From assembly GCF_004010195.1 (NCBI RefSeq), contig NC_057727.1:44904527-44968526 (forward strand): a stretch of DNA of 64,000 nt. Direction: 5' to 3'. The notes beneath the pieces were generated by a model, which worked only from the letters and a program-made list of their open reading frames with translations, had not been told where the DNA came from and did not search any database. Below, piece by piece: positions 2,226 through 63,690 of the stretch (the stretch's first letter is position 1; every line of letters begins with the position of its first letter). The stretch comes from Chiloscyllium plagiosum. Taxonomy: Eukaryota. The position numbers were made by a program, and so were the translations under genes.

Positions 2226-2258
2226 TCGATGTTTCGGGCATAAGCCCTTCTTCAGGAA
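2226..2258 (-). ncRNA. Minimal hammerhead ribozyme motif in PLE pLTR
   Basis: Minus strand: ttc CTGAAGA A GGGC-TTAT-GCCC GAAACATC ga. Confidence 0.65.
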
Positions 2259-3378
2259 TGAGGACGGTGTGCCAAGCAGGCTAAGATAAAAGGTGGGGAG
2301 GAGGGACTTGGGGGAGGGGTGTTGGGAATGCGATAGGTGGAAGGAGGTTAAGGTGAGGTTGATAGGCCGGAGTAGGGGTGGGGGCAGAGAGGTCGGGAAG
2401 AAGAATGCCGGTCAAGAAGGCGGGGCTGAGTCCGAGGGGTGGAAATGAGATAAAGTGAGGGGAGGGGAAATGAGGAAGCTGGAGAAATCTACATTCATCC
2501 CTTGTGGTTGGAGGGTTCCTAGGCGGAAGATGAGGCGCTCTTCCTCCAGGCGTTATGTTGCCATTGTCTGGCGATGGAGGAGACCAATGACCTGCATGTC
2601 CTTGGTGGAGTCCTTCGTCATTTCCGCCACCTCCAAAGAGACCCCACCACCAAGGATATATTTCCCTCCCCTCCCCTATCAGCGTTCCGGAAAGAGCACT
2701 CCCTCCGCGACTCCCTCGTCAGGTCCACACCCCCCACCAACCCAACCTCCACTCACGGCACCTTCCCCTGCTACTGCAAGAAATGCAAAACTTGCACCCA
2801 CACCTCCCACCTCACTTCCCTTCAAGACCCAAGGGATCCTTCCATATCCGTCGCAAATTCACCTGCACCTCCACACACATCATGTACTGCATCCGCTGCA
2901 CCCGATGTGGCCTCCTCTACATTGGGGAGACAGGCCGCCTACTTGCGGAACGTTTTAGAGAACACCTCTGGGACACCCACCAACCAACCCAACCGCCCCG
3001 TGGCTGAACACTAACTCCCCCTCCCACTCCGCCAAGGACATGCAGGTCCTTGGCCTCCTCCATCGCCAGACCATGGCAACACGATGCCTGGAGGAAGAGC
3101 GCCTTATCTTCCGCCAAGGAACCCTCCAACCACAAGGGATGAAATGCAGATATCTCCAGCTTCCTCATTTCCTCTCCCCCCTCCTTATCTCAGTCCCAAC
3201 CCTCGGACTCAGCCCCACCTTCTTGACCTGCAATCTTCTTCCTGATCTCTCCATCCCCACCCCTTCTCCAGCCTATCACCCTCACCTTAACCTCCTTCCA
3301 CCTATCGCATTCCCAACGCCTTCCCCCAAGTTCCACCTCCCTACCTTTGATCTTAGCCTGCTTGGCGCACCCTCCTAA

Positions 3379-3411
3379 TTCCTGAAGAAGGGCTTATGCC
3401 CGAAATATCGA
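3379..3411 (+). ncRNA. Minimal hammerhead ribozyme motif in PLE pLTR
   Basis: ttc CTGAAGA (3382-3388) A GGGC-TTAT-GCCC GAAA (3402-3405) TATC ga. Confidence 0.7.
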
Positions 3412-4849
3412 TTCTCCTGCTCCTTGGATGCTGCCTCACCTGCTACGCTTTTCCAGCAACAGATTTTTCAGCTCTGATCTCCAGCATCTGCAGTCCTCAC
3501 TTTCTCCTAGTTGTTTTACCACAGTAACCTGTGATATTTCTCCCAAATCCAATAAACAGTACATCATTGTTTAGTATTAAGGTTTCATTTCAAGTCAAAG
3601 ACTCGAACCTAACACAAATGAGTTTGAAGGGCAGATCTCCATTTAGTACTGATAGCCATATATTCAGCATTACATTTGATAGTCAAAATTCTTTTTGAAC
3701 TCCCTTTGGTGTGAGCAGTGCCCAAACTGTGATGTAATTCTTAAATATTTTCTGTTTCTCATGTATACTCATGAAAAACAAGATTCTTTTTCCTTTATGA
3801 AATTCCTACCACAGAATTGTGTACAGCATTAATGGAAGAAACTATTGAATTTGTTAATAGAAATGATCAAAACGTAATTGGCAACTAGTCACTGACAACG
3901 TACTCTGCCAGAACTAACCCAATATATTGCAAAATCTTTGCCCATGGGTTATCTGTTTCAATTACACCAATATGATTTATCTAAAAATGAAGTAGTGGTT
4001 TTTAATGGAGTTGAATTTACTGGAGCTGTATAAGTTGATTTGATGTTTGAGAGAAAAAGAATTACCTGATGTTGTAATCACAATAATACATAGAAAGCAC
4101 TGTCATTCAGTATATTTGTAATTGAAACAGAATCAGGATTTCTAAAAGTAATTTACAAAAACAGAACAATGTTATGTTAAAATGTAAACAATGTTTGCCA
4201 CTAAAAGGTGACAGCAGTAGATTTTACAGAATAATGCAAATGATACCATACCATGCTCTGGATAGTGGGGTTTCTTGTAACTTCTATGTTTGTATATGGG
4301 AGGGGAACTGCAAGTTGATTCTGCAGATCAAAGTTAACGAAGAAGAAGGAAACTGCAACTCTATTTCAAGTGTGTTATAGAAAACTATGTTGAGGCTACT
4401 TATGGCACAGTAAAAGTGTCCCTACCTGGGAGCCTGAAGGTACAAGCTCCACCTGCTCCAATGGTGTAACATAACATTACTGAACAAACTGATTTGGAAA
4501 ATATCTGGAAAATCATGCTGTGCAAAGGGAATACATATTTACATAAATTACAGAATAATAAAGACTCAACAGTGCCATAATAATGGTCCATCCAAAGACT
4601 GGGGGTTAAAGATAATAAAGAATGGCAAATGTCTCTACAATATGTCTGGAGCTGTTTTCATTTGGATAAAGGATAAGTTTGACTATATTTGAATGGGGTA
4701 TCCTATCAGTGTTGCTGCTGACCAACCCTACAAAGTTCTAAGAATGCAACTCGTTTATATATATTGAAGAAATGGTTAACAAAAGTTGTTGTTCATCAGT
4801 ATGAAGACAGATTTACCTGTCTCTCCAACAGCAGTATGATTTTAGTACA

Positions 4850-5400
4850 AGTTCTAAATCAGCATATTTTAATACAAAATGAAGAAAAGGAAATATGGAA
4901 TTTAGTTCTAGAAAACAAAATGGGGCAAGTAGACAATGAAAGGGCATAGGAATATTTATGAAACAGAGATCTGAATACAATTAAATGAATTGGAATGAAA
5001 TACTTGCAATTAGGCGGTGTCTAGTCAATTAAAAATCTCTAAATGTGAGATCATGGTGCAGGCTGCATAAATATCTACAGGACATGGAAAGGGGGAAAAA
5101 AAATCAAAATGCAAACCTGAAGATTGTGAGAAAGGAGGAATAAGAGAACACTGAGAGGGTGAATAGCAACACAAAGGTAGGCAGAGGATATATAAAAAGC
5201 AAAAGTTTCATTAAGTTATTCAAGTGAGGACTTAACGGAGAAAGAATTATTAAACTAAGTTGGGGAGTAGGCATTTCATGACTAACATATGCAAGTACTT
5301 TTGAGAATGATAAGATAAAAACTTGGAGGAGGGAATGGCCTTTGGATCTTTGATTGATACCTGACAAATACTGCACGACGAACAATTACCAGACAATGAT
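4850..5400 (+). mobile_element. Highly decayed CR1-like LINE internal fragment
   Basis: NLVLENKMGQVD resembles the LDLVLxNxxGQV end of the CR1 endonuclease domain. The rest is very degenerate. Confidence 0.35.
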
Positions 5401-6490
5401 CTTTCACTGAATTGGCCAATAAGTTGCCAACAGGCACCCTAATTTTCCGATTAAGGACAGTGGATAAGTTCAGAAGAAGGTACAGTCTCCTGTTTCATGC
5501 AAGGGGGGAAGAGGGTGACTCTCAACATTCTTTAGAACTTTTAACTTAAAAATTATAACAATAGTTAGACCATCACTGTGGAGGAGGATCCTCAATGTGC
5601 CCTGTGCCAATTCTGTGGCCAGGTAAGAAGCTCTCAAAGGCCACTTGGAACAAAAGCCCCCTCACTTTCCATCTGATACTGGGAGGCAGCCTCCAGTCAG
5701 CTGACCTGTTACTGAAGCCACAGGAGGCCTTGCATCCAGTTGGCCTCCATTAATTGACCATCAACTTACCAAACTGGAAACGTATCCACTTCTGCTTCTG
5801 ATCCTACTTTTGCAAAATAAGGCCAGCAACAAGAGTTGGTGCCAGAAAACAGGCATACCATTTGTTAACGTGGATAATTGCACGACCACTCTTCTGCTGC
5901 TCTGCTCCCCTCCCAGAACCCCACCCCTGCGAGTGTTCACAAATGCACACACCCTACCTCTGTATCCACCTGCACATTGAGTCAAAGACTCTGTCTAAAG
6001 AGAGGGTGGAAAGAGACAAAAGTTTAATAGGACAAAGAATAGCACAGAGGAAAGTAGAGATGTAATTTAGTTTTATGTAATTGCTACTGAATTTATGAAA
6101 TTATTTATTTACACATTGACTATTGAGAAATTCAGGAAGAGACATTATTATTTATGGGAATACGTTGTAGCATGGAGTGAGTAGGAGTTCATTCATTATT
6201 GTTATTGATTTTGTAACAAATATAAAGGGGCCAGTGGGAGTAACTTAATTCATGATTGCGAATATTGAGAATTAATATAGTAGCTAACCTACTGAAGTTA
6301 GCATAAATATGTTAAGAAATTAACTCATTAATTATTTTATAAAGTAATAACAATGCTGGGCAGTTGGTTCATGTTAATACAATAAACTTAGGAAGGGGAA
6401 TTAATTGTCATCGTAATTTGAGGAAGATGCAATGAAAATGTGTTGCTGGAAAAGTGCAGCAGGTCAGGCAGCATCCAAGGAGCAGGAGAA

Positions 6491-6523
6491 TCGATGTTTC
6501 GGGCATCAGCCCTTCTTCAGGAA
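6491..6523 (-). ncRNA. Minimal hammerhead ribozyme motif in PLE pLTR
   Basis: Minus strand: ttc CTGAAGA A GGGC-TGAT-GCCC GAAACATC ga. Confidence 0.65.
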
Positions 6524-7885
6524 TGAGGAGAGTGTGCCAAGCAGGCTAAGATAAAAGGTAGGGAGGAGGGACTTGGGGGAGGGGCGTTGGAAATGCGATA
6601 GGTGGAAGGAGGTTAAGGTGAGGCTGATAGGCCGGAGTGGGGGTGGGGGCGGAGAGGTCATGAAGAAGATTGCAGGTTAGGAAGGTGGTGCTGAGTTCGA
6701 GGGTTGGGACTGAGACAAGGTGGGGAGAGGGGAAATGAGGAAACTGGAGAAATCTGAGTTCATCCCATGTGGTTAGAGGGTTCCTAGGCGGAAGATGAGG
6801 CGCTCTTCCTCCAACTGTCATGTTACTATGGTCTGGCATTGGAGGAGTCCAAGGACCTGCATGTCCTTAGTGGAGTGGGAGGGGGAGTTGAAGTGTTGAG
6901 CCACGGGGTGGTTGGGTTGGTTGGTCCGGGTGTCCCAGAGGTGTACTCTGAAACGTTCCGCAAGTAGGCGGCCTGTCTCCCCAATATAGGGGAGCCACAT
7001 CGGATGCAGCGGATGCAGTAATTAATGTGTGTGGAGGTGCAGGGGAATTTGTGGCGGATATGGAAGGATGCCCTGGGGCCTTGGAGGGAAGTAAGGGGGG
7101 AGGTGTGGGCGCAAGTTTTGCATTTCCTGCGGTTGCAGGGGAAGGTGCCGGGAGTGGAGGTTGGGTTGGTGGGGGGTGTGGACCTGACAAGAGAGTCACG
7201 GAGGGAGTGGTCTTTTCGGAACGCTGATAGGGGACGGAAATACATCCCTGGTGGTGAGGTCCGTTTGGAGGTGGCGGAAATGACGACGGATGATATGATG
7301 TATATGAAGGTTGGTGGGGTGGTAGGTGAGGACCAGTGGGGTTCGGTTCTGGTGGTGACCAACCTCCATACACATCATATCATCCGTCGTCATTTCTGCC
7401 ACCTCCAAATGGACCTCACCACCAGGGATATATTTCCGTCCCCTCCCTTATCAGCGTTCTGAAAAGACCACTCCCTCCGTGACTCCCTTGTCAGGTCCAC
7501 ACCCCCCACCAACCCAACCTCTACTCCCGGCACCTTCCCTTGCAACTACAAGAAATGCAAAACTTGCGCCCACACCTCCCCCCTTACTTCCCTCCAAGGC
7601 CCCAAGGGATCCTTCCATATCCGCTATAAATTTACCTGCACCTCCACACGCATCATTTACTGCATCCGCTGCATGCGATGTGGCCTCCTCTATATTGGGG
7701 AGACAGGCCGCCAACTTGCGGAATGTTTCAGAGAACACCTCTGGGACACCCGGACCAACCAACCACCCCCACTCCGGCCTATCAGCCTCACCTTAACCTC
7801 CTTCCACCTATCGCATTTCCAACGCCCCTCCCCCAAGTCCCTCCTCCCTACCTTTTATCTTAGCCTGCTTGGCACACTCTCCTCA

Positions 7886-7918
7886 TTCCTGAAGAAGGAC
7901 TGATGCCCGAAACGTCGA
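7886..7918 (+). ncRNA. Minimal hammerhead ribozyme motif in PLE pLTR
   Basis: ttc CTGAAGA (7889-7895) A GGAC-TGAT-GCCC GAAACGTC (7909-7916) ga. Canonical GUC triplet, one helix II mismatch. Confidence 0.65.
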
Positions 7919-8949
7919 TTCTCCTGCTCCTTGGATGCTGCCTGACCTGCTGCACTTTTCCAGCAACACATATTCAGCTCTGATCCCCAGCATTGCAGTC
8001 CTCACTTGCTCCTAGAAGATGCAATGATGGCAGGTTGCATTTAATTTAAGTAACAACAATTGTGAGATAAAATTATGTAGTATTTATTAAGGAAACACTA
8101 AGTTACAGAAAGGATGAACTGTTGATAAAGACTGGGGAATGAGGTATAGGGGAAAATTCATGAATAAATTATTTACTAAGCCCTTGAAGAAAACGAAGAG
8201 ACTGGGATTTGCTTTAGTGCCTAGTTAAGAACGTGAGCACAATAATCTACGGTGAACTAAATCACATTATTCCAGGAAAGCGCCAAAATGATGGTATGAA
8301 AGTAAATGCAGGAATAGAAAAGCTTTTTTTTTTCAGTAATTTATTATGATGGCAGAAGAAAGCCGAGTAAATCTATATTAATTCTATCATTAGATTAGCT
8401 CTGACTGGCTGTATTAAAGGTAAGTAAACTTGAGATAAGTTGCCAGCTATTGAGGCCAGTTGTCCTGAGATAAAACAGCATGCCAGGAAACCAAAGAGTT
8501 ATAATGGGATGGGAAACGAGGGTCAGGGTAGAAATTGGACTTACAGTGCCTGTATTTTAGACAACATGCGGCCTAAAAACCCTTAAAAATAATGTATGAA
8601 ATATACTAGCATTCTTCCAATTGGGAAATGTGTCAGGCACCAACTTCAGAAAGTGATTTCTAAAGATGCTGCTGATTTGTTGCCAATGCTGACATTGTCA
8701 AAACCCTGCCTCTACCCAATGCCCTAGCCTATGTTTGCATGACCGAACACAACAGGACTCCATTAGATTTATATTTAAAGGGATAATGAGCTACATGCAA
8801 ATTAGCTGTTAACAATTATTTCATTTGGCTGCAGGTATATTTATATGCATTTCTGGATTTTCCCTACATTTGGTTAATGTTTGAAAAGTCCAGGCTGTGA
8901 TTTGGCTGGCATTCAAGTATCTTTTTGTTGACTTAACAGATTTTGACGA

Positions 8950-9322: not shown

Positions 9323-9324
9323 AC

Positions 9325-11049: not shown

Positions 11050-11178
11050 AGACAGTGGGGACCACAGATGTTGGAGAAATCAGAGTTGATAAAGCATGGT
11101 GCTCGAAAAGGCACACATGGTCAGGCAGCATCCAAGGAGCAAGAGAGTCAATGTTTCAGGCCAAACCCTTCTTCAGGG
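11050..11178 (-). mobile_element. PLE family A pLTR fragment with degenerate hammerhead
   Basis: ggtcaggcagcatccaaggagcaagagagtcaatgtttcaggccaaacccttcttcagg matches the pLTR at 2163-2258. Confidence 0.7.
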
Positions 11179-15580: not shown

Positions 15581-16713
15581 AACATGGATACTACCATTAC
15601 ATGTGGGGACGCCACCCACTATGTATGCAAAGATACCCATGTGACTTGGCCAACGTTGTCTATCTCATACGCTGCAGGCAAGAATGCCCCAAGGCATGGT
15701 ACATTGGCGAGACCAAGCAGGCGCTACGACAACGAATGAATGGACACTGCACACCAATCGACAGACAGGGATGTTCCCTCCCAATCGTGGAACACTTCAG
15801 CAGTGAGGGGTATTCGGCCTCAAATCTTCGGGTGACCATCTTCCAAGGCAGACTTCAGGATATGCAATGATGCAAAGTGGCCAAACAGAAGCTGAGAGCC
15901 AAGTTTGGTACCCATGAGGATAGCCTCACCTGGGACCAAGGGTTCATGTCACACTGCAGGTGACCCCACTACACGATACGCACACACACTCACACACACA
16001 CTCATGCAGACCCTCTCTCAGACACACACATATACAATCCCCACACTCACATCCATGCACATACCCTCTCACAGGCTTATACTCCATCACACCCACACAA
16101 GCACTTTATCAAGCTTTCACACATGCAAAGATGCACTCTCTCATGTGCACTTACGCAACACTCATTCTCTCTCCCTCTCTCCCCCCTCAACACACATGTA
16201 AATCTATGGGGTGAATTTGCATTTGCAGACACACTCTATTTTGTTCAAAAAGCACACAATCTGCAGGCAGTCAATGTAGGCAATCAATCCATGTAACATT
16301 TTACAAATTCCTACATTGGAAATAGAACCAGTCTGACTCAACGTTGGGATACAGACAGATTCTAACCTCACACCTTTAATATATTGTCTGAGCTGAGATG
16401 TCACCATTTTTTTATAAAGCCTGAGGTTATCTCAAGAATGTGTCTTGAAAGAAGTTCTGGGATTTACATACCAAAACCTGCAACCGATTCTAAAAGATAA
16501 AAGACTTAACAGCAATCTAGATTTGTTCAATATATCATTTCAGTTGCATGACACTGTGGTCTTTTGCTATAAATTCTGTGTCTTATGATACTGCTGCACA
16601 GAAGAAGCAGCACTCTGAAAGCTAGTAGTTCCAAATAAACCTGTTGGACTATAACCTGGTGTTGTCTGATTTTTAACTTTGTCCATCCCAGTCCAACACC
16701 GGCACCTCCACAT
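15581..16713 (+). mobile_element. Penelope-like element family B, 5'-truncated (GIY-YIG, CA-rich UTR and pLTR)
   Basis: RYPCDLANVVYLIRCRQECPKAWYIGETKQALRQRMNGH. The pLTR end aaacctgttggactataacctggtg...ggcacctccacat matches 34668-35074 and 38890-38956. Remnant hammerhead half GAAAGCTA at 16617-16624. Confidence 0.88.
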
Positions 16714-17749: not shown

Positions 17750-18772
17750 TTGGTGTTGGAAAAGCATAGCCAGTCAGACAGCATTCAAGGTGCAGGAGAA
17801 TCAATGTTTCAGGTATAAGCCCTTCATTAGGAATGAGGCTTGTGGGCCAAGAGGGCTGAGAGATAAATGGGAGGGAGGTGGGCTGGGGGGGAATGATAGC
17901 TGAGAGTGCAATAGGTGGTTAGGTGTCACACACACATGAAGCAACCCCACCACCCCATGGCCGAACACTTTAACTTCCCCTCCCACTCACTCAAGGGCAT
18001 GCAGATCCTGGGCGTCCTCCATCGCCAAACCCTTACCACCCACTGCCTGGAGGAAGGATGCCTTATCTTCCACCTTGGGACCCACCAACCACATGGGATC
18101 AATGTGGATTTCACCAATTTCCTCATTTCCCCTCCCTCCACCTTATCCTTTATGGGCGACATGGTGGCACAGTGATTAGCACTGCTGCCATGCAGCGCCA
18201 GAAACCCGGGTTCAATTCCCGCCTCAGGCGACTGACTGTGTGGAGTTTGCACATTCTGCGTGGGTTTCCTCCGGGTGCTCCGGTTTCCTCCCACAGTCCA
18301 AAAATGTGCAGGTTAGGTGAATTGGCCATGCTAAATTGCCTGTAGTGTTAGGTGTAGGGGAGTGGGTCTGGGTGGGTTGCGCTACGGTGGGTCGGTGTGG
18401 ACTTATTGGGCCGAAGGGCCTGTTTCCACACTGTAAGTAATCTAAAGCTCGAATCCCAAATCCAACTTTCCAAATAGGCACTGCCCTCTTGACCTGTCCT
18501 ACCTGTCCATCTTCCTTCCCACCTGTCCACTCCACACTCCTCTCCAACCTTTCGCTTTTACCCCCATCTTCCTCTACCAATCTCACTCTCAGCTACCTTG
18601 CCCCCAGCAGCACCCATCCCCCTCCTATTTATCTCTCAGCCCCCTTGGCCCACAAGCCTCAGTCCTGAAATGTCAATTCTCCTGGTCCTCTGATGCTGCT
18701 GGACCTGCTGTGCTTTTCCACCACCACACTCTTGACTCTGATCTCCATCATCTGTAGTCCTCACTTTCTCCT
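17750..18772. mobile_element. PLE family A fold-back copy (older) with nested HE1 SINE
   Basis: Inverted pLTR ends. GIY-YIG C-terminus (AEHFNFPSHS..GMQILGVLH..EEGCLIFHLGTHQPHGINVDF). Imperfect TSD acattccttgaa (17729-17740) / acattccctgaa (18775-18786). Confidence 0.85.
18153..18445 (+). mobile_element. HE1-type V-SINE inserted in a PLE
   Basis: gggcgacatggtggcacagtg...gggttcaattcccgcc...gggccgaagggcctgtttccacactgtaagtaatcta. Confidence 0.9.
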
Positions 18773-22065: not shown

Positions 22066-22074
22066 GAGACATCA

Positions 22075-27700: not shown

Positions 27701-29249
27701 CATGAGAAGATTCCAATGGTGAAGTCTCAGCAGCTCAATAACACCATCATGACCCTTCTCACCTTCACCTCTCATCTTCTTCCTGTGCACCTGCTAATGT
27801 TAATGTGGAATCGCTGAATAGTCTTGTGCATAGGGACCCACACGGACACAAACTCTCACAATAGCAGCAAATACGTCTGATTAAAAATTCACCACGGCAG
27901 AAACACACAATGCATGAATGCAGCCAGATTACCATTAATTTAATTATAAAATGAATTAACATTCTGCATTCGTCTCAAATATATAAAGTGTCCATGTGAA
28001 CCCATGTGTGACTAATGTGTATTTACTTCTCTTGGAGATTCTGTGGTCTGCTGACGGTGTTGGAGATGGGCTGCTAATTCAAATGTCCACTTTCTTGGAA
28101 TGACTTTGACAGCTGTCTGCTGGTCGCCTGAAGCTATGAGGACTCTGGCAATGCTGGGAGAATCCTACATAATGGCATGAGGCCATTTATTGTTGCAGCA
28201 CTTTGGGGTATTTATGCCATTGGTGCAGAGGCAAGTTGAGGCTTTCCCCATCACAAATGGCCTCAGAGCACCCTCTGATGATACTAGCAACTGCTTAATC
28301 TCTCTATGAGGATAATTTCCCTCCCTACTTTTCTGGGACAATGCAAAAACCGAATGTGACTCCATGCTCTTCATCCTACTACACCCCCCGCCCCCCCCTG
28401 ACAACTCCCCACCCCCCTCACCTGGTTCTGGGCCCTGAAACCCAGTCATAAGGCAATAGAGTTCAGGTCAGAACTTATATTCAGTATCCTTTCAGTGAGC
28501 TGCTGGGTCCAGTCCATCATAATAGTCACTGGTCTGCCATTGAGGAAGATTCTGAATTCTGAGAGTGGATGGAGTCCTCCATCATCCATACCATCCCACA
28601 ACCTCACTGGTACCTATGCCACATCTCCATGAATGTCTTGCTGTATGTTCATCCACTGCCTGGTGGATGACTCCAGAGTTTGTCATATGCCTGAAGCTAA
28701 GCACCTAGGTCACCTCCAGTACTCTTTTGAATGTGACAGAGACTTGCACAATTTCAATCTCTGACAGCCATTCTTCTGACTATGATCTGCTCTCACTGGT
28801 GTGTGGAGTTCTCATGCATACCCACCAAGGTGCCAGAGAATACCCACCTTCAGTAGTGCCCATGGAGCATTTTGTACCTCTTCTGATGAAAATAATGGTG
28901 ATGCTGTGCTGCAATCATTGCCTTCAATTGTGTGACCAACTTCTGTTTTGTCAGCGGCCAGCATTTCTCAAGGCTCCTTGCAAATGGACAAATGTTGTCA
29001 CTGAACTGCAGCCCATCCCCAAACCACTCCAGCAATGCAGAATGACATGTTTGCATCAAGTCACCATTTATAGTTGGTCAATACACCATCCAATATTGGA
29101 AACACTTCACACCCTCACACCCATCCATACAGGTTCAACTCCAAGATGTTGCATACTCACCCTGGAAGATCTCAAGACAGAGTCGTTTCTGACACTGCAG
29201 CCCTCCTGGCAAACCCATGGCTTTTTAACTCTACTGGAACTTCTACCCA

Positions 29250-29460
29250 GGGAGAAAGTGAGGACTGCAGATGCTGGAGATCAGAGTCGAAGAATATGGT
29301 ACTGGAAAAACACAACCGGTCAGGCAGCATCCGAGGAAGAAGAGAATCAACTTTTTGAGAATAAGCTCTTCAGGAATGAAGCTGATGAAGAGCTTATGCT
29401 CGAAACGTTGACTCTCAGATGCTGCCTGACTGGCTGTGCTTTTCCAGCACCACATTCTCA
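29250..29460. mobile_element. PLE family A mini fold-back element (two inverted pLTR pieces)
   Basis: ggagaaagtgaggactgcagatgctggagatcagag... followed by an inverted copy. Flanking repeat actggaacttctacccagg (29233-29251) / actggaacctctacctagg (29461-29479). Confidence 0.85.
29381..29411 (+). ncRNA. Minimal hammerhead ribozyme motif (variant helix II)
   Basis: CTGATGA (29382-29388) A GAGC-TTAT-GCTC GAAACGTT. The helix I 5' strand is disrupted by the inversion junction. Confidence 0.55.
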
Positions 29461-30253
29461 ACTGGAACCTCTACCTAGGCTAATTTGGCTGTAGTTTTCC
29501 TCTGCCCATCTGCTGACATGAGGACCTGTACTTACCATTCCTAGTCTACAGGATGACAGACAGGGAACCTTGGCCTGGTCCTTCAATAGCTGGTGACTCC
29601 ACTCCTTCCACTATCTGTGGGAAGATAAAGAGAGAAAATGATTGCACTTTGAGTTTTTTTGCTGTTTGTTTGTTATTCACAAGGTGAATGGATTAAATGT
29701 ATTCAAATCACCTTTCCTCCCTGGCATGGATCCTGAATGCTTCACTATTAGCACATTTAAAACCATGAACTTCCCTGCTGCAGATAATAGATACATTTAA
29801 TCATCTTCTTGAGGAAATGTTTCAGGCTCCAAGCAATGAGTTTTGTTGCCACAGTTCTGCTTAACCAGATATCAGAGATTGATGCTTGGTACATGCCCTG
29901 CAGCTTCTGCACCCAGGTATTCTGCCTTTCCTCACCGCTCAGTTGTACTCAGTTGGCACAGTCACTCAGTAGTTAGCACTGCTGCCTTGCAGCACCAGGA
30001 ACATGGAATCGATGCCATCCTTGGATGACTGTCCATGTGGAATTTGCACATTCTCCCTGTGCCTGCATGGGGTTCCTCCGGGTGCTTCAGTATTCTCTCT
30101 CAGTCCAAAGATGTGCAGGTTAGGTAGATTGTCAATAGTGTCCAGGGATACGCAGGTTAGGCGGATTAGCCAAGGAAAATGCAGAGTTGCAGGATAGGAT
30201 AAGGGTTGGGTCTGTGTGGAATGCTCTTTGGAAGTTTAGTGTGGATTCAATGG

Positions 30254-30960
30254 CTGAAAATGTGTTGCTGGAAAAGCGCAGCAGGTCAGGCAGCATCCAA
30301 GGAACAGGAGANNNNNNNNNNNNNNNNNNNNNNNNNNNNNNNNNNNNNNNNNNNNNNNNNNNNNNNNNNNNNNNNNNNNNNNNNNNNNNNNNNNNNNNNN
30401 NNNNNNNNNNNNNNNNNNNNNNNNNNNNNGGCGGAAGATGAGGTGCTCTTCCTCCAACCGTCGTGTTGCAATGGTCTGGCGATGGAGGAGTCCAAGGACC
30501 TGCATGTCCTTGGTGGAGTGGGAGGGGGAGTTGAAGTGTTGAGCCATGCGTTGGTTGGGTTGGTTGGTCCGGGTGTCCCAGAGGTGTTCTCTGAAACGTT
30601 CCGCAAGTAGGGGGCCTGTCTCCCCAATATAGAGGAGGCCACATCGGGTGCAGCGGATGCAATAGATGATGTGTGTGGAGGTGCAGGTGAATTTGTGGCG
30701 GATATGGAAGTATCCTTTGCCTTGTAGGAAAGTAAGGGGGGAGGTGTGGGCGCAAGTTTTGCATTTCTTGCGGTTGCAAGGGAAGGTGCCGGGAGTGGAG
30801 GTTGGGTTGGTGGGGGGTGTGGACCTGACGAGGGAGTCACAAGGGAGTGGTCTTTTCGGAATGTTCCGAAAAGACCACTCCCTTGTGACTCCCTCATCAC
30901 ATTTTCAGCTCAACACATTTTCAGCTCTGATCTCCAGCATCTGCAGTCCTCACTTTCTCC
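30254..30960. mobile_element. PLE family A fold-back insertion, right arm largely missing
   Basis: GIY-YIG on the minus strand and a central 32-bp perfect palindrome. Exact 13-bp TSD gtggattcaatgg at 30241-30253 and 30962-30974. Confidence 0.9.
30312..30429. other. Assembly gap (118 N)
   Basis: Run of N inside the PLE. Confidence 0.99.
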
Positions 30961-34757: not shown

Positions 34758-34792
34758 CACTAACTTTCGGAGCGACGCTCCTTCATCAGGTG
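34758..34792 (-). ncRNA. Minimal hammerhead ribozyme motif, family B
   Basis: CAC CTGATGA A GGAGC-GTC-GCTCC GAAAGTTA GTG. Helix I is CAC/GTG and helix II is 5 bp. Confidence 0.75.
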
Positions 34793-34988: not shown

Positions 34989-35023
34989 CACCTGATGAAG
35001 GAGCGTCACTCCGAAAGATAGTG
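34989..35023 (+). ncRNA. Minimal hammerhead ribozyme motif, family B
   Basis: CAC CTGATGA A GGAGC-GTC-ACTCC GAAAGATA GTG, two substitutions relative to the inferred consensus. Confidence 0.65.
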
Positions 35024-36624: not shown

Positions 36625-37771
36625 GGGTTCTGGGATGAAAACAATTAAGTTGAGTTAGCCAGCAAACTTTACTACTTCTGTGAATTGTTTTTTTGTTATC
36701 CAGAGTTAACACTTAATGTTGCATGGTGGATACGTTTTGTAGGCTTTTAAGGAGACATTTCACAACAGTGTTCCAAAGCACAGTGCTTAGTCCTTTAGGT
36801 ATTTGTTATAGAATAAAAGCATTTTTTATAGTATTCAATTCAATTCAAAAACTGAACACAATATTTAGGTGAGAGACATACATATAATCAAAAATAGCTA
36901 GTTTTAAATGTAATTAAATCATTGGATAAATCGCAAGCCTCATGTGTTTCCTTGAAGACATTTTGCTCCCAAGGCAGATGCTGACAACTCAGTTAAAGCA
37001 TTCAAAACTATAGGGAAATAGCTATAGATATAAAACTAGCAATTGTCTCCCCAAACACTGAACTTTGAGCTATTTTACATATTAATAATGAAGTGCCCAC
37101 TAAAATAAACTATCAACATTCGTATTTTTTTCCAGTTTTGGAAACAAATTTCAAGAATGTTTTCTTTCAGGAGAATAAACACAAAACAAATTTTAAAGCA
37201 TAGTGAAGTTCATCAACACAAGTCAAAAATTAACATTCACAGCCTTCACAGTTTTATGAAAGAGAAGGATAATGTTGGGCAGATTTTTCCACATCTTTAA
37301 GTGGTATGGACAATGGTGAGAAAGTTGGAAAAATACAATAAAAATGAAAAGTTAGATTAACAAGTCAAGAAAAATTTTGTGTAGCGAGTTCTGAATCTTA
37401 CTAATGAGCAGTGACTACCCTATTTATATGCATTTACATCTCATTATTAGGTAAATTCACCTCATGGCTTTGCAATTCTCAATTCTCCTTTACTTCCCTG
37501 AGAAACTAGACTGCACTAATGCCTTCATGAATTCTGAGAAACTAGCTCAGGTTAAGGTTCTGGATGTAGGTTTGCTCATCATGCTGGAAGGTTCATGTTC
37601 AGATGTTTTGTCACCATACTAGGTAACATTTCCTGCTCTTTTTCTCAGGGGTTGATAAATCAGGTCCAAGTCAATGTGTTTGTTGATAGAATTCTGGTTG
37701 GAATGCTATGCTTCTAGAAATTCTCGTGCGTGTCATTCTCTCCGATTTACCACCCCCTGAGAAAAAGAATG

Positions 37772-37887: not shown

Positions 37888-37927
37888 TCACTGAAGATGT
37901 TACCCAGTATGGTCACGAAAGGTCTGA
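37888..37927 (+). ncRNA. Minimal hammerhead ribozyme motif, family C
   Basis: TCA CTGAAGA T GTTACC-CAGTAT-GGTCAC GAAA GGTC TGA. Helix I is TCA/TGA. The inverted partner near 37598-37630 has GTTACC...GGTGAC. Confidence 0.65.
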
Positions 37928-38889
37928 ACATGAACATTCTAGCTCAACGAGCAAACCTACATCCTGCAATAATTTCTGATGTAGAAGGCAAAGCCAGGAT
38001 TCCAGTTCAGGTTTGGCAATGATCAGTCCTGCAGGTCAAGTACAATGAGTTCAGGGATGACAGCTACATTTTTCTGAGTGGTGTGGAGATATAAGTCTGG
38101 AGGCTGGATTGTCCTTGGTCAGGTCTGTTCAGCACGACAGTCCAGATGATGGTCCATGATCAGTCTTGGATGCTTAGCAACTGATGGTCAGGGAGCATGC
38201 AGTTCTGTGAAAAGTGAGAAGCTCAAGTCTTGAGTTGGGTTCATTGTGCTGGTTCACTGAGAAACTTATTACAGTGAAACTAGATAGAAATGTGAAATCT
38301 CATAGTATATAAGAGATGAGTGGAAGTATTTTACAAATCATAATCACTCTCTCCTCAATATACGAAGAATTTATAGCCAAATTTGGGTTGAAAAATCACA
38401 AAACCACGGGCTCAGGGGTCAACTGGAGACTTTAGCGTTATATGGAGGAGGTAAGTAGAAAATAGGGAAGGCTAAAAGGTTAACAGGAACAAAAAGGAAA
38501 CTTAAAGGATGGAAAGATTATTCTGAAAATCAGTCATGAGCACATAAGGTTGAAAACTTGCCATCTTGACATCAAACTGCAATAATGAAACAGAATCTCT
38601 TTCACAACTTGCAGAGTGTGTGGAGTAAGTCACTGTATTTCAGAAATGAAGTTAAATCCTTTGAATGTGAGTCCTTGATGGAGGTAATTGTGTTAATCTT
38701 GCTTCCACTGTGCATCCACTGATTCAGCAATGCCAGCCTTATGACATCAAAATGCAATTCAAAGAATGGCATTTCTAATGATGGCCTCAAAATATCATTC
38801 TTATGTCAGATAAGCCTATTTATTCAGATGTCAACTTAAACGTTTCATCTGGGTTTTCTATTTCTGAATCATATTACATACCTAATACA

Positions 38890-39812
38890 TGATGTGGAGG
38901 TGCCAGTGTTGGACTGGGGTTGACAGAGTCAAAAATCACACTATACCGGTTTATAGAGTCATAGAATCATAGAGATGTGCAGTACGGAAACAGACACTTC
39001 AGTCCAACTCATCCATGCTGACCAGATATCCCAACATAATCTAATCCCATTTGCCAGCATTTGGCCTATAATCCTCCAAACCCTTCCTATTCATATACCC
39101 ATCTAGATGCCTTTTAAATGTTGCAATTATACCAGCCTCTACCACTTCCTCTGGCAGCCCATTCCACACATACACCACCCTCGACGTGAAAAAGTTGCCC
39201 CTTAAGCCTCTTTTATATCTTTCCCCTTTCACCCTAAACCTATGCCCTCTAGTTCTGGACTCCTCCACCCCAGGGAAAAGACCTTGTCTATTCATCCTAT
39301 TCATCCCCCTCATGATTTTATAAACATCTATAAGGTCTAACAGGTTTATTTGAAACCACAAGCTTTCGGAGTCCCCCTTCTTCCTCAAGTAGGTAATGAG
39401 GGAGAATACATTGGACACAGAATTTACAAGTAAAAGATAAAAAGATCATACAACTGGTGCAAATGTATTGATCAAACCTAGATGGCTATTAAATTTTTAA
39501 TCGGTTAGAATGGAGATGTAGGTTTTGATTTATTAATTTGTAAATCCCAGAATTTCTTTGAAGTCACTGCACCAAAATAACTTAAGGTTTTATCAGTATA
39601 AAAGTGTTATCCCAGTCAGACAATGCATTTTAGGTGTGAGGCCTTGTTTCAAGCTTGTTCGTGTCTCAACCTGGAGTCAGACTAGTTTTATTTCCAAAGT
39701 AGGAATTTAAAAAATGCCACATTGACTGACTGTCTACAGTTTGTATGCTTTTTGAACAAAATAAAATGTATCTGCAAATGAAAATCTCAAATGCAAATAA
39801 AAATTCACACCT
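38890..39812 (-). mobile_element. PLE family B 3' end / pLTR, interrupted by a CR1 fragment
   Basis: atgtggaggtgccagtgttggactgggg...ttatag | gtctaacaggtttatt...agctttcgga. The body matches the reverse complement of 16200-16713. Confidence 0.8.
38957..39333 (-). mobile_element. CR1-like LINE 3' fragment
   Basis: DLIDVYKIMRGMNRMNRQGLFPGVEESRTRGHRFRVKGERYKRGLRGNFFTSRVVYVWNGLPEEVVEAG, with a (catagaat) tail. Confidence 0.9.
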
Positions 39813-46679: not shown

Positions 46680-46890
46680 GAGCTGAAAATGTGTTGCTGG
46701 AAAAGCGCAGCAGGTCAGGCAGCATCCAGGGAACAGGAGAATCGACGCTTCGGGCATAAGCCCTTCTTCAGGAATCTTATGCCCGAAACGTCGATTCTCC
46801 TGTTCCCTGGATGCTGCCTGACCTGCTGCGCTTTTCCAGCAACACATTTTCAGCTCTGATCTCCAGCATCTGCAGACCTCACTTTCTCCC
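46680..46890. mobile_element. PLE family A mini fold-back element (81-bp hairpin plus tail)
   Basis: Arms 46680-46760 and 46776-46856 with one mismatch and a 15-nt spacer. Exact 13-bp TSD atatatgtagtgg at 46662-46674 and 46892-46904. Confidence 0.93.
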
Positions 46891-48459
46891 TATATATGTA
46901 GTGGCCAATTCATGCTCTCCTGATGGGACACCAGCCAATTCCATTCAGGAGTTATATTCAACACCCAGTCACTGATTAGATGGCAGGAATCTAGGGATAG
47001 GCAAGCCATGAACCAGAAGTTATTCATGGCCACCGGTTTATAATAACTTCTGGCACATATCTTCGTCACCTGAAACAGAGAGTGCAGCTTTGAAATTGCA
47101 GGGTGTTTCCGAAGGAGGATTTAAATTGCACTGACCTATTGCAGCTGGTTAGAGCTTGCTTTTAAGTGTGGATGACTTCAGAGCTGGTCTTGAAGCATTC
47201 AGTTCCTTTGTCAGGATGAAAAGAACATTGGAATGCAGCTGACCCACTCCCATTATAAGTAGCAAGAATTGAGGGAAACATTCTAAATTGACAGATTAAC
47301 TCTTTGCCTCTCCACAAACAGCAGAGAAAATGGAATAAAGAGCTGGAAAGGTTCCCAGATCAAGGACAAACTAATGATTTGACAATGACTCCTTGCAATT
47401 CCTCCTCCTGGCTCTAAGTCCTCATGCCCACTGGTAGGAAGAGGAAATCTCCCATCAGACAAGAGCCACCGGACTGAGTGGAAGTCAGCAACCTTAAGGT
47501 CATCCAACAAATGTGGCTTCAGTGCCAAAAAAGATTCAACAGCCTCGTGAGATATGAAAACAGGAGTGTGTAACCATTCTAGAGACAGATATACATATAT
47601 AAGTGAGGGGCGTTAATGAATGAGACGTTTTGTATATTTCTCAAATGTGGAAAGTGACATGATACAGACATGTCACTCTGCATGGCAATGCGGTTTCTTA
47701 GGGAGTGGGTTTGTGGTGTTTGAAACAATTCACTGATAAGGAGCACTCAGAAGAGGTAGCCTTGAATATAGTATATATTGGCCACATTTTAAAGGCATAT
47801 ATATAGCACAGTATCATTGAAATTTTGCTCTACTTGCAGAAGAGGGCATACAATGTCTGAGTAAGGGTCAGGACCAGACTGTGCGTAGGTAAACCCGGGA
47901 CAGTCTAACCTCATTCTGGAGGAGGGTCTGGCATTGGCAGCAAAAGATTGGAGTAGAGCCATTAGTTGCAGCAAGTTGGGAGAAAGCCCAAGGTGATGAA
48001 ATACCAAGGACACATAAAGATCAAACCTGCCAACAGTATAGGGGAGGAAACTGGGGTGGGAAGTGTCGGAAAGACAGCTTTCATGGATTTTGAGAATGAA
48101 GGCTTGCAGAATTTAAAGAGGAAAGTGTGGTTACCACCTCCCAGTGGTGCCAGTTTGAGTTTTAAAATAGCATGATTCTCCAAGCTTACCTCAAGTGATG
48201 ATGACACCCCTCATTCTCATTGCTTTTGTTTCCTTATGGGTGACATGTTGCAGTTTAGACAGTAGCCTCAAAGGGCTAACAGTAGATTTTGAGGAGCAAG
48301 AAGTAACATTTGAGGATGCAGTATCACATTCTTACACAGTATTTAACATCAGTACAGACACACACAACTTGGCGGGTAAGTGTCAATTGGCGGCAAGTAA
48401 CTAACACTCTGGTGAACAAACATCGCAGTCAGCAGAACTCAGATCTAGCAGCTTCTGAT

Positions 48460-49636: not shown

Positions 49637-49934
49637 GGGCGGCACGGTGGCACAGTGGTTAGCACTGCTGCCTCACAGCGCCAGAGACCCGGGTTCAATT
49701 CCCGACTCAGGCGACTGACTGTGTGGAGTTTGCACATTCTCCCCGTGTCTGCGTGGGTTTCCTCCGGTTTCCTCCCACAGTCCAAAGATGTGCAGGTCAG
49801 GTTAATTGGCCATGCTAAATTGCCCATAGTGTTAGGTAATAAAGGGTAAATGTAGGGGTATGGGTGGGTTGCGCTTCGGCGGTGTGGACTTGTTGGGCCA
49901 AAGGGCCTGTTTCCACACTGTACTGTAATGTAAT
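49637..49934 (+). mobile_element. HE1-type V-SINE (young)
   Basis: Full head to gtaatgtaat tail. 5-bp TSD ctcac at 49632-49636 and 49935-49939. Confidence 0.93.
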
Positions 49935-51760: not shown

Positions 51761-54066
51761 CTGAATAGATTCTCAATGCCTCTACTTTACTGTTAAAGAC
51801 CACAGAGTATGGCGCACATGGCTACAACATGTGGCACAAATAAATAGCACAGCTCAATGCACTTTAGCAAAATTCTTTGCATTGCCTCAAGGTATCCAGA
51901 AGTTATATATGCAACAATACAGATCCTCCTGGTGATGATTTTTGAATTAATCTTTATTACAAGGTAAGCAACCCCCAGGAAATACTCCTATTATCTATGC
52001 AAGGAGAGTATGGGTCAAATCATGAAGGAGTTGAAGTGGGACAGAAACTCCCATGTAGTTTTCTGGGTGCCTGGAAGGTAAAATATGGTTTAAATTAATC
52101 ATATTCATTGCACCTGCATTACAAGAAGACAGATTATCATTACATATACAAGTACAGAGGGAATTGTGACATACCTCAGGGGATACGTCAGTTCAGTGGT
52201 AAAGCCCAGGCTATCATAGTGCAGCAGCATCCTGACATATACTCGTGTTACTTAATCTATTCACAAATCATAATTGTTTAATTCTTTCATGTAATTATAT
52301 GCGGAAAGAAAGAAATACTAAAGGAAAATCTTCATTCATTGTTGCTTGCAAGTTCTAGGGATTGACTTTCATTTTAGCAAATTTGTAAAAGTATTTACAT
52401 CATGTTCTTTCCTGGCTGCTTTGACGAAGTTTATTTTTAAACTCTGGTCTTACAGTTCTTCAGAAAATGTACCTGCAATCCGCAACATAGTTTAGGTATG
52501 GAGCATGGAAGCAAAAACAGCATCTTGCACTTCTTTCTCATTCATCATCTTTTATGCTGTATTCATCAGGTTCAATGATTATCAGTGATCCCACAAGTAC
52601 AGTAAATTAAATGCAGAAGCTATTTTTTTGTATTGGTCAGTTGTCTACATAGCAAAGAAGCTCACTTATTTATTTCTATCAAGTTAATTATTTGTATGAA
52701 GTCTGAGCAGTGTTACTTTCTCTTATAAGTTATATTGTAAATACATGCATAAAATAAATTATATTGTAAATATTTCAGTATTGAATATTTCCTTGAATGT
52801 TACTGATAATGAAGTTGTTTAATTTACATCAATAATAAATTCAACCTAATTAATAATGTAAATATATTTAATGATGCTATCAAAACAACTTATGTGAATA
52901 ATGTTAGCACAAATTTACTACCACTTGTAGTTTCTTGCAATTAGCGGTAATCAAACACTTACAGCAATTTGAGTTACTCACAATGTCCATATAATATTAA
53001 ATACAGTTGTAATTGAATAGATATTAACTAAAACACTAATTACAATAATTAGTAATGTGCAGATCCTGTTTGAATTATACAGCCAAATTCTAAATTGTCT
53101 TCAGGCATTATAACACAGATTTTTAAATACATTTTGTAAAGCAAGTGTTGAAATACATGGTCTATCCAGAGAGATTAATTTTCTGTGCACTTCTCTAGAA
53201 CTCACTCCCTAAATATCTCCATCTCACTAGCATTCATTTTTTCTTTCAAGAAGGTCTTTAAAATGTACCGTTTTGACCAAGAACTCTGTGAAGTTAGGGA
53301 TTTTTTGTTGTTGTGTTAAAGCTGCTATATAAATCCAAATTGTAATTGTTGTCTGAAGTGTGATGTATGTGGCACTGAGTGACACAGAATAGGAAGATCT
53401 TGAGTTTGATTTTCAATTTGAGATGAGCTTACAGTCAGACTCAGAGTATCAGGAGTCACAAGACGTTGGCCCCAATCTCCCCAAAAGTGAAAGGGGAAAA
53501 AAAGCAATCATAATTTCTCACATTTAATTGTTATTCAGTGACCCCTGCTGGATATGGAGAGAATCAACTGTGAAAGTGTTGCCTCTTTATCTTCAAGTAG
53601 CCTGCCACCATTTCACTATCTGGACTCACATGAAGAATGACCATAAGGGAGTAATAGCAATGAAAATGTCAACTGAAAGGAATGGTCTCCTGGTCAAGAG
53701 CTGCATTTGAATGGAAGATGAGTTAGAGAGTAAAGTACTTTCCTTGAGTATGTAGGATTGTTAGGTTTATCCTTACACTCCAGCCTGAATCCTCAATTTA
53801 GTGATGTCAGTGACGTATCAAAATGAACTTATTACAATATGAATTTCTTAATTGCCACCAGGGACATCAACTTCAACTGGGAACAATTAAGAAAAGCAGG
53901 CCACAGAAGACTAAAGACTATCACCATCAGGAAAGATACGTTGGCCTCAAAGGAGGAACAGTGCAGAATTCCTAGAATATTGGTTGAGACAGGTTACATA
54001 AACTTGGTTTGTACTCACTTGAATTTAGAAGGTGAGAGATTATCTGATTAGTATTTAAAATTATAA

Positions 54067-54232
54067 ACAAAATCAGAACTTGCTGGAAAAACCTAGCAGG
54101 TCAGGCAATATCTATGGGAGAAAACAGAGTCAATGTTTTGGGTCCAGTGACCCTTTTTCAGAGCACCTGAGTTCTTTCAGCAATTTCTGATTTATGTTCC
54201 TGATTTGAGTGTCTGCAGTTTGTTGTTTTTTG
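54067..54232. mobile_element. PLE family D mini fold-back element inserted in a CR1 remnant
   Basis: aaatcagaacttgctggaaaaacct...ctttcagcaatttctgattt inverted ends. Degenerate hammerhead on the minus strand (CTGAAAA A GGGTC-ACTG-GACCC AAAACATT). Exact 13-bp TSD tttaaaattataa at 54054-54066 and 54233-54245. Confidence 0.72.
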
Positions 54233-54264: not shown

Positions 54265-54558
54265 GGGTGGCATGGTGGCTCAGTGGTTAGCACTGCTGCC
54301 TCAGCACCAGGGTCCCAGGTTCGATTCCAGCCTCAGCTGAGTCTCTGTGTGGAGCTTGCACATTCTCCCCGTGTCTGCGTGGGTTTCCTCTGGGTGCTCT
54401 GGTTTCCTCCCACAGGTCAGGTGAATTGGCCATGCTAAATTGCCCATTGTGTTAGGTGCATTAGTCAGAGGGAAATGGGCCTGGGTGAGTTACTCTTCGG
54501 AGGGTCGGTGTGGGCTTGTTGGGCCGAAGGGCCTGTTTCCACTCTGTAGGGATCTAAT
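54265..54558 (+). mobile_element. HE1-type V-SINE
   Basis: gggtggcatggtggctcagtggttagcactgctgcc...ggttcgattcc...gggccgaagggcctgtttcc. Confidence 0.9.
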
Positions 54559-61950: not shown

Positions 61951-62057
61951 TGGTAATTTGGAACAAGAAAGATAGTATAAATATAGAATCAGATGTATAA
62001 TCAAACACAATTGCACAGACTTGGCTGCAGAATGACAGAGTGGAAATGTCATTCAGA

Positions 62058-62848
62058 TGTAAAGGATGGAAACAGACCTTCGGTCCAACTCATCCATGCC
62101 GACCAGATATCCCAACCTAAATCCAGTACAATTTGCCAGCACTTGGCCCATATCCATCTAAACACTTACTATACATATACTCATCAAGATGCCTTTTAAA
62201 TGTTGCAATTGTACTAGCCTCCACCACTTTTTCTGGTAGCTCATTCCATACACACACCAACCTCTGCGTGAAAAAATTGCCCCTTACGTCCCTTTTAAAT
62301 CTTTCCCCTCTTACCCTAAACCTATGCCCTCTAGTTCTGGACTCCCCCATCCCAGGGAAAAGACATTGTCTATTTATCCTAACTGTGCCCCTCATGATTT
62401 TATAAACCTCTATACAGTCACCGCTCAGCTTCCAACACTCCAGGGAAAATAGCTCCGGCCTATTCAGCCTCTCCCTGTAGCTCAAATCCTCCAACCCTGG
62501 CAACCTCCTTGTAAATCTTCTGAACCCTTTCAAGTTTCACAACATCCTTCCGATAGGAAGGAGACCAGAACTGCATGCAATATTCCAACAGTGGCCTAAC
62601 CAACGTCCTGTACAGCCGCAACATGACCTCACAACCCCTATACTCAATGCTCTGACCAATAAACAAAAGCATACCAAATGCCTTCTTCATTATCCTATCT
62701 ACCTGCGACTCCACTTTCAAGGAACTATGAATCTCTACTCCAAGGTCTCTTTGTTCAGCAACACACCCCAGGACCTTACCAATAAATGTATAAGTCCAGC
62801 TCTGATTTGCCCTTTCCAAAATGCAGCAGCTCAGGTTTAACTAAATTA
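62058..62848 (-). mobile_element. CR1-like LINE 3' fragment
   Basis: EQRDLGVEIHSSLKVESQVDRIMKKAFGML...LYRTLVRPLLEYCMQFWSPSYRKDVVKLERVQK and RTRGHRFRVRGERFKRDVRGNFFTQR. Confidence 0.93.
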
Positions 62849-62850
62849 AA

Positions 62851-63690
62851 GAAGTGTGGCACTGGAAAAGCACAGCAGGTCAAACAGCATCCGAGGAGCA
62901 GGAGATTTAATGTTTCGGCCATAAGTCTGTCATCAGGAATGTGGAATGGGAAGGGAGCTGAGAGATAAATACGGGGGTAGGTATGGGGCATGGGGTAAGG
63001 TAGTTAAGGAGGTGCAGGTGGAAGGTAATTGTGATAGGTCAGTGGGGAGGGTGGAGTGGATTAGTGGGAGGGAAGATGGACAGATAGGGCAGGTCAAGAG
63101 GGCAGTGCTGAATTGGAGGGTTGAATCTGGGATATGGTGGGGGGAGGGGAGATTTGGAAACTGATGAAGTCAGTATTGATGCTGTGTGGTTGAAGAATCT
63201 CAAAGTGGAAGATATTGGGTGGCTTTGATTTGGTGGTGGAGGAGGCCCAAGACTTGCATGTCCTTGGTGGAGTGGGAGGGGGAGATGAAATTGTTGGTAA
63301 CAGGATGGTGGGATTGTTTGGTGCATGTGTCCCAGGAATATTCCCTGAAATGTTCCATGAGTTGGCATCCTGTCTCACCAGTGTAGAAGAGAGTACCTTG
63401 AGAGCAATGGACAGAGTCAACAAGGTGGATGGATGTGCAAGAAATTTTCTGCTGGATGTGAAGAGATCCTTTGAAAGCCATGGATGGAGGTGAGGGGGGA
63501 GGTGTGGGCACAAGTTTTACAACTTGAGTAGTGGCAAGGGAAGATGCTGGGAATGGAGGGTGATTTGGTGGGGGGTGTGGACCTAACCCATGAGTTGCGG
63601 AGGGAATGATCTCTGCTGAACACAAATATGGGTGAGGAGGGAAATATATCTTTGGTGGTCAGTTCTGACTGTATGGCAGAAAATAATGCA
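62851..63690 (-). mobile_element. PLE family A-related 3' part (older)
   Basis: CHYSSCKTCAH and LFYTGETGCQLMEHFREYSWDT. pLTR with a degenerate hammerhead at about 62908-62938 (CTGATGA CAGAC-TTAT-GGCC GAAACATT). Confidence 0.85.

Follow-up and report, generated by a model that had tools for sequence, protein, structure and literature searches.

Do the hammerhead-like motifs scattered over a 64,000-nt stretch of the Chiloscyllium plagiosum genome (contig NC_057727.1, positions 44,904,527 to 44,968,526; hereafter the window) represent genuine ribozymes, to which elements do they belong, and can any copy still cut RNA? A preliminary description of this sequence had placed minimal hammerheads in the termini of four families of Penelope-like elements (PLEs), with visible covariation, and had suggested that some copies may still cleave transcripts that read through them. 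We find that the motifs are real PLE terminal minimal hammerheads of a known kind and that the original claim was overstated. Very probably, they are the termini of 5'-truncated, mostly inverted insertions from three PLE lineages, in which a known minimal type-I hammerhead is decaying neutrally.

We scanned both strands of the window for CTGANGA, then for a hairpin and then for GAAA. Both core boxes are intact at 10 PLE termini: 2255-, 3382+, 6520-, 7889+, 11176-, 29382+, 34789-, 34992+, 37891+ and 62936-. The layout at each is CTGANGA-N-helix II-GAAA-NN-T-H, with a single extra base after A9 in all ten; this extra base and a G10.1-C11.1 pair closing helix II are found in all of families A, B and C. 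With two relics one change away (46771-, GAAG; 17830-, CTAATGA), the earlier count of about a dozen core sites is fair. The core is incomplete at these two relics, at 37629- and 29373-, and at the copy designated family D.

Could such motifs be chance matches inside ordinary repeats? CTGANGA by itself is only mildly enriched, occurring 57 times versus 41.5 ± 6.9 in 200 block-wise dinucleotide shuffles, and its abundance, like the lack of an Rfam match, might be taken to favor this idea. However, a strict descriptor (core, helix II of at least 4 bp, and GAAA) finds 8 sites, whereas the shuffles average 0.25 and never exceed 2. Requiring UH and 2 bp of helix I leaves 6 sites versus 0.005 in the shuffles, and requiring the palindrome as well leaves 2 versus 0. 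No hammerhead match was obtained from Rfam in the window at E values up to 1, only hairpin look-alikes, as expected because the motifs lack helix III and loops; by canonical type-I standards, which call for a 6-bp helix I, loop-loop contacts and a match to the Rfam model, they fall short in this respect and in having a helix I of 2-3 bp. One unrelated site, 32927- (32884-32931, minus strand), passes even the strictest descriptor. It lies in no repeat family, has a long loop II and no extra base, shows helix II pair probabilities of at most 0.05, and is probably a chance match; setting it aside leaves 3382+ as the sole complete copy. The shuffles, the published consensus and the fact that three unrelated termini carry the motif in the same place with respect to endonuclease and tail refute coincidence as a general explanation, and we give it next to no credence.

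All window motifs fit the published consensus CUGANGA-H-G...C-GAAA-N-palindrome-NUH (PMC4209133, Fig. S3). The minimal hammerheads of Cervera and De la Peña (2014, PMC4209133) share with them the type-I core, the extra base after A9, the G10.1-C11.1 pair, a helix II of 4-6 bp, a helix I of 2-3 bp and a palindrome for helix III. They likewise occur as several families per genome, mostly in single or opposite-strand copies 100-700 bp apart, and the Acropora Neptune motif (Fig. S3) has a helix II nearly identical to that of family A. In contrast, cartilaginous fish are absent from the 56 rows of Fig. S3 and from Table S1 of that study, and its counts are ∼4,000 for coelacanth and ∼9,000 for Xenopus, set against ∼100,000 A-terminus contig records here, which are not copies. 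The motif has been known since 2014; our data add further families, from a cartilaginous-fish-type genome, and leave the model unchanged. A literature search, thin in its coverage of subscription journals, returned no paper specific to shark PLE hammerheads beyond one chondrichthyan in a 2026 preprint that reports non-LTR retrozymes (Li, Clavereau and Pollet 2026, bioRxiv 10.64898/2026.07.22.740005).

The following features belong to family A and its lineage.

2224..2259, minus strand: family A hammerhead, C3 at 2255, predicted cut between 2228 and 2227, core and helix II intact
2669..3114, plus strand: family A broken Neptune-type linker (C-x4-C-x2-C) and GIY-YIG remnant
3378..3413, plus strand: family A hammerhead, C3 at 3382, predicted cut after 3409
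6489..6524, minus strand: family A hammerhead, C3 at 6520, tetramer ACAT, left arm of insertion 6428-8012
6788..7237, minus strand: family A endonuclease remnant, frameshifted
7441..7765, plus strand: family A linker and GIY-YIG remnant, right arm, Pfam E value 0.03
7885..7920, plus strand: family A hammerhead, C3 at 7889, tetramer ACGT
11146..11178, minus strand: older A-lineage stub, C3 at 11176, helix I broken, tetramer ACAT
17799..17834, minus strand: A-lineage relic, C3 at 17830, core CTAATGA, helix II broken
18634..18771, plus strand: A-lineage terminus, CUGANGA region deleted, partner arm to 17738-17916
29249..29377, minus strand: A-variant arm with tail, 3-nt deletion in the core, GAGC/TCTC, AAAA
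29382..29413, plus strand: A-variant hammerhead, GAGC/GCTC, ACGT
30250..30960, both arms: family A inverted insertion, GIY-YIG at 30431-30838 (minus strand), Pfam E value 2.4e-7
46680..46892, both arms: family A fold-back mini-insertion
62905..62940, minus strand: old A-lineage hammerhead, C3 at 62936, core boxes intact, 2 of 4 helix II pairs broken
63209-63632, minus strand: endonuclease remnant upstream of the 62936- hammerhead

Family A termini sit behind same-strand remnants of a C-x4-C-x2-C linker and a GIY-YIG endonuclease (Pfam PF01541 matches 2831-2974, E value 1e-4). The linker directly fits the pattern CX2-5CxxC before a C-terminal GIY-YIG, and these remnants, arranged as in Neptune and Nematis (PMC8557442), mark family A as a probable Neptune-type PLE. 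Helix II reads GGGC/GCCC at 3382, 2255- and 6520- and GAGC/GCTC at 29382, just as first described. Only 3382+ is complete in every respect; its tetramer, ATAT, probably arose from ACGT by decay of both CpG bases. The hammerhead at 2255- forms the left inverted arm of insertion 2163-3507 and has a non-palindromic tetramer (ACAT), helix II of 7889+ contains an A.C mismatch (pair probability 0.0), and the 11176- stub begins 1-2 nt before C3. Sites 29373- and 29382+ are the two arms of one insert (29249-29463), at whose inversion junction 29382+ lost the 5' strand of helix I. In insertion 30250..30960, the minus-arm hammerhead coincides with a gap of Ns (30312-30429), and a 36-bp perfect hairpin at 30827-30898 marks the junction. 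The minus arm of 46680..46892 begins 4 nt before C3 (46771, GAAG), while the plus arm begins inside helix II (46776) and bears the tail.

Two further details of family A deserve mention. In the tail (2179-2196, minus strand), a 5-bp hairpin overlaps a CTGAC, pyrimidine run and CAG stretch that resembles a branch point plus 3' splice site, and family D shares the same stretch. Introns are known in the pseudo-long terminal repeats (pLTRs) of PLEs. At 46777-46859 (plus strand), an ATG in loop II opens a 26-codon frame that ends in the tail; the open reading frame (ORF) of the Anolis Poseidon element begins in stem II (PMC11167929).

Family D had been counted as a fourth family, with a GGGTC/GACCC helix II.

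54058..54198, minus strand: A-related fold-back stub ("family D"), C3 at 54161, GGGTC/GACCC paired, no ORF

The helix is indeed paired, but the core reads CTGAAAA...AAAA, with both G8 and G12 mutated. Family D matches the A tail over 63 nt (76%, E value 2e-5) and is also recovered by nhmmer, with a model built with D included. As it lacks an ORF and shares the A tail, D is a relative of A, probably non-autonomous, rather than a lineage of its own.

Family B is represented by five features.

15631..15957, plus strand: family B GIY-YIG endonuclease remnant, Pfam E value 4e-4
16430..16713, plus strand: family B 3' terminus, downstream of the above endonuclease, with a degenerate hammerhead (AGCT) near 16599
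34758..34792, minus strand: family B hammerhead, C3 at 34789, 5-bp helix II, 3-bp helix I, tetramer AGTT
34989..35023, plus strand: family B hammerhead, C3 at 34992, C.A mismatch in helix II, tetramer AGAT
38889..39560, minus strand: old B-lineage terminus, core TTGAGGA near 39388, AGCT

The claimed GGAGC/GCTCC helix is present at 34789-, whereas 34992 has ACTCC and hence a C.A mismatch. These two copies lie on inverted arms, 34660-34960 (with tail) and 34967-35074, and the pair (34660-35074) contains no ORF. Its terminus is homologous to 16487-16713 over 242 nt (76%), and the position of terminus 16430..16713 behind a GIY-YIG remnant ties family B to a PLE ORF. The B endonuclease is 26% identical to that of A over 68 aa; its one homologue (P0001) bears CX2-5CxxC, and its own upstream stretch is broken. 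Together, the homologue's linker and the broken stretch suggest that B, too, is Neptune-type. The palindrome AGCT occurs only in the two degenerate relatives (about 16600+ and 39390-), so at the family level it rests on 2 of 4 copies. A later LINE-like (long interspersed element-like) insertion splits terminus 38889..39560; this 3' fragment (38956-39335) is 85% identical to 62120-62419.

Family C consists of a single insertion.

37562..37629, minus strand: family C inverted arm with tail, helix II GTTACC/GGTGAC, CUGANGA lost by deletion, AAAA for GAAA
37622..37750, minus strand: Penelope/Poseidon-type endonuclease C-terminal remnant, two stops
37888..37927, plus strand: family C hammerhead, C3 at 37891, T.C mismatch in helix II, tetramer AGGT

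GTTACC/GGTGAC had been assigned to 37891 and its inverted partner. The actual 3' strand at 37891 is GGTCAC; GGTGAC occurs only in the partner, 37629-, where a deletion has removed CUGANGA and AAAA stands in place of GAAA. Both C copies are thus incomplete, and several helices in the preliminary description turn out to be composites of two copies. The helix I sequences given there, CAC/GTG for B and TCA/TGA for C, are correct. A palindrome for C can be reconstructed only by parsimony, from AGGT and ACAT. Upstream of the AT-rich box and hammerhead, the C terminus contains three tandem copies of an 18-nt unit (37770-37830, plus strand). The C remnant, a broken piece of 43 codons, gave no match in a word-based homologue search and 39 proteins, many of them fragments, in a full scan. 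Of 14 homologues scanned, 6 have GIY-YIG and 2 RVT_1 (one has both), and the CX2-5CxxC linker is found in 0 of the 39. The presence of homologues with GIY-YIG and without the linker points to a Penelope/Poseidon type for C.

Three lineages, A, B and C, are thus tied to PLE ORFs, rather than four. Their termini show no mutual blastn matches at E values up to 0.01, and the earlier proposal that separate lineages each keep the ribozyme core holds for these three, whose helix II sequences and flanks are unrelated. Endonuclease-containing PLEs (Neptune, Penelope/Poseidon; Craig et al. 2021, PMC8557442) provide a close parallel: they share the C-terminal GIY-YIG, the linker (seen in A and the homologue of B, and in none of C's homologues) and 5'-truncated inverted insertions with a 30-40 bp tail. 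The insertions here are mostly head-to-head arms with the tail on one side, and an inverted arm plus tail is the described PLE layout (PMC8557442, PMC3846280). They differ in that the window holds endonuclease-side fragments only, and the linker cannot separate Neptune from Nematis. Non-LTR retrozymes (bioRxiv 10.64898/2026.07.22.740005) are also non-autonomous, pLTR-derived hammerhead repeats, but they are head-to-tail tandems; the window's copies are single or head-to-head, and we rejected this assignment since no same-strand pair lies closer than 4.2 kb and no tandem hammerhead pair is present. A 19-nt A-tail pattern matched 1 viral and 114 metagenome loci, which we regard as chance matches, as 0 of the 115 has an upstream hammerhead.

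Is there evidence of selection on the motif? The "visible covariation" reported earlier comes down to two compensated changes set against at least six broken helices. One is G-C to A-U at pair 10.2, seen in both arms of the single insert 29249-29463; the other is C-G to U-A at pair 10.4, in A versus D. A third covarying pair that had been counted is an artefact of misaligned rows. In shuffles, 79 of 500 reach the pair count and 11 of 500 the covariation score, and relatedness alone can yield such scores. Helix II, said to stay paired, does so at 3382, 2255-, 6520-, 29382 and 34789- and is broken at 7889, 17830, 29373, 62936, 34992 and 37891. A palindromic tetramer remains in only 4 of 13 scored sites (3382, ATAT; 7889, 46771 and 29382, ACGT), most single copies having lost it; as a property of family A, whose majority tetramer is ACGT, the proposed helix III palindrome stands.

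The preliminary description had named a core no more conserved than the flanking pLTR sequence as one outcome that would refute it. We compared core and tail in 12 of the 14 aligned A-lineage rows, leaving out D and 21400+ (a tail fragment only). Departures from the majority amount to 8 of 118 cells for the core, compared with 60 of 579 for the tail (P = 0.31); at non-CpG cells the figures are 7 of 106 and 40 of 507 (P = 0.84). For helix II, 15 of 87 cells depart from the majority. Hence, within the window's A copies, that outcome is observed. A comparison within one family is nonetheless unsuited to the question. Inserted copies decay neutrally, so that inside a family core and tail erode alike; it is between lineages that selection becomes visible, for the catalytic bases are all that A, B and C have in common.

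A broader sample comes from sequencing reads and contigs mapped on 2140-2480 at 80% likeness, the RNA being a single-cell poly(A) library. The A terminus matches 100,227 contig records in organism A and 92,120 in organism B (records, not copy number), together with 3,196 RNA reads (∼2% of one run) in both orientations. ACGT is the majority tetramer, at 65% and 60% of DNA depth in the two species and in 71% of RNA reads. Among 40 of 121 variant rows, the only variants in the motif are at the free position N7 and at the reference's own CpG decay, compared to four in the tail. These 40 rows fit an invariant core.

The hammerhead likely acted in the RNA of the donor elements. Going by published work, two motifs in a tandem donor would pair via the 4-nt palindrome, thereby creating helix III, and would cleave at a slow rate after NUH (the dimer-cleavage model is reviewed in PMC6765202 and PMC6155905); this cleavage would process the element RNA. 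We propose that the core was under selection in the donor lineages alone, which would explain why it is common to the families yet decays like the tail within one. Alternatively, donors may retain the motif as a cis signal (promoter, reverse transcriptase binding or template structure) that cleaves weakly, if at all. For the Anolis carolinensis Poseidon element (Frangieh et al. 2024, PMC11167929), hammerhead mutants insert normally in vitro, the ribozyme is dispensable for insertion and uncut RNA is the main substrate; Naiads are described as thriving without a hammerhead. However, what families A, B and C have in common is precisely the set of catalytic bases, and the Anolis motif cleaves in vitro and is rescued by C3G/G8C (PMC11167929). 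We consider a pure cis signal unlikely, if a serious contender. The Anolis element resembles those studied here in carrying its hammerhead in the pLTR, in having two 3' end positions about a tail apart and in lacking RNA reads that end at the cut site; it differs in being intact and assayed, whereas the window's copies are dead fragments.

Several points weigh against the interpretation that the motifs lie in neutrally decaying termini from three donor lineages. Twelve copies give little power to compare core with tail, the tail may itself be constrained, and the per-position variant evidence covers 40 of 121 rows. The window contains no reverse transcriptase domain, and clade calls rest on endonuclease and linker pieces. 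Activity of the motif in shark donors is inferred. Moreover, helix II forms in local folds of 3382, 2255, 6520, 29382 and 34789 (P of 0.88-1.0), and folding of any kind is a thermodynamic prediction.

Do the inserted copies cut? In the rival scenario, some still cleave host or read-through RNA, as dimers between insertions or in trans, which the very large number of copies would allow. Site 3382+ is complete; 29382+, 34789-, 2255- and 6520- keep core and helix II; and the abundance of the A terminus in RNA, in both orientations, implies that partners exist in the nucleus. Several observations argue otherwise. Helix II is absent from local folds of 7889, 62936, 11176 and 37891, and when whole insertions are folded it is lost to the inverted arm in 8 of 8, with 30-36 motif nt paired distantly in 7 of 8. 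Because the arms point outwards, a read-through transcript meets the antisense arm first, and in the predicted fold of 3382+ this arm pairs with 36 of 36 motif nt. Monomer and dimer folds lack hammerhead geometry, as expected of nearest-neighbor models, and were not used to judge activity. Partners are also wanting: 3382+ has no compatible same-strand partner, same-strand A copies are >4 kb apart with mismatched tetramers, and neighbors form no clean helix III (ACAT x ACAT gives two C.A mismatches, ATAT x ACGT one). Published activities of minimal hammerheads are none as monomers and low as dimers (PMC4209133), and 1 of 9 Xenopus dimers cut (bioRxiv 10.64898/2026.07.22.740005). There is no pile-up of RNA ends over the A terminus among the 3,196 reads, a weak test given family-wide mapping and a poly(A) library. 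A Pfam search with 300 of the 307 non-repeat ORFs that reach 50 aa gave no host exon above the cut-off, although short exons would escape. The suggestion that copies still cut read-through RNA is therefore not borne out: the only complete copy has no compatible same-strand partner, and its motif is predicted to be captured by the antisense arm. The inserted copies, being mutated, without a matching same-strand partner and paired off by the first-transcribed antisense arm, are predicted to be silent, and cutting of host transcripts appears quite improbable.

The ends of family A copies bear on the RNA forms that were inserted. Depth drops 2.7-, 2.1- and 3.6-fold from bin 2248-2259 to bin 2260-2271, and loose ends pile up at 2250, 2259 and 2260-2263. 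Among the joints listed (15 of 64), one arm lies at 2257-2263 in 10 of 10 opposite-strand joints. Short arms in the window show the same tendency, five beginning at about -8 to 0, one at +11 and none at the cut. This clustering upstream of the core, not at the cut, favors the cis-signal alternative. In the same 10 joints, however, the other arm ends at 2206-2227, that is, at or downstream of the cut, 2227 being the first base after the predicted site. Inr-like (initiator-like) motifs have been described in rotifer pLTRs (PMC3846280). Position 2259 is the A of TCATTC, four bases before C3. TCATTC resembles the initiator consensus. Behind 2259, the loose sequence starts with C in both DNA runs and with A in the RNA run. 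Of the inserts listed at 2259, 3 of 3 have C as their first base, equivalent to an extra G on the element strand, which is possibly what a copied cap would give.

Copy ends near TCATTC suggest capped, uncut templates, although part of the depth drop reflects other subfamilies diverging upstream and the loose consensus agrees only at 0.31-0.4. More speculatively, the ends may record both RNA forms: capped uncut RNA (starts at TCATTC, four bases ahead of the core, with an extra G) and the 3' product of cleavage (the inverted partner arm, which tends to begin at or beyond the scissile bond). We regard this as an unlikely reading: it draws on 15 of 64 joints, a gap of ≥32 may be favored by 31-mer contigs, and in the window itself the arm at 46776 does not conform. 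If true, the termini would constitute a genome-scale fossil record of PLE transcription start and germ-line hammerhead cleavage, and a handle on how head-to-head insertions form. Should the distribution of ends hold up, it would bear on the in vivo role of the PLE hammerhead: the abundant A family gives enough junctions to count, and such counts could separate transcription-start from cleavage-site templates.

Further A-lineage 5' ends lie near the core at 46775, 29377, 11178 and 54161. The window also contains many copies of a tRNA-headed short interspersed element (13067-13253, 17097-17391, 43177-43484, 46069-46371, 49641-49928, 54267-54549 and others), which we take to resemble the elasmobranch HE1 family.

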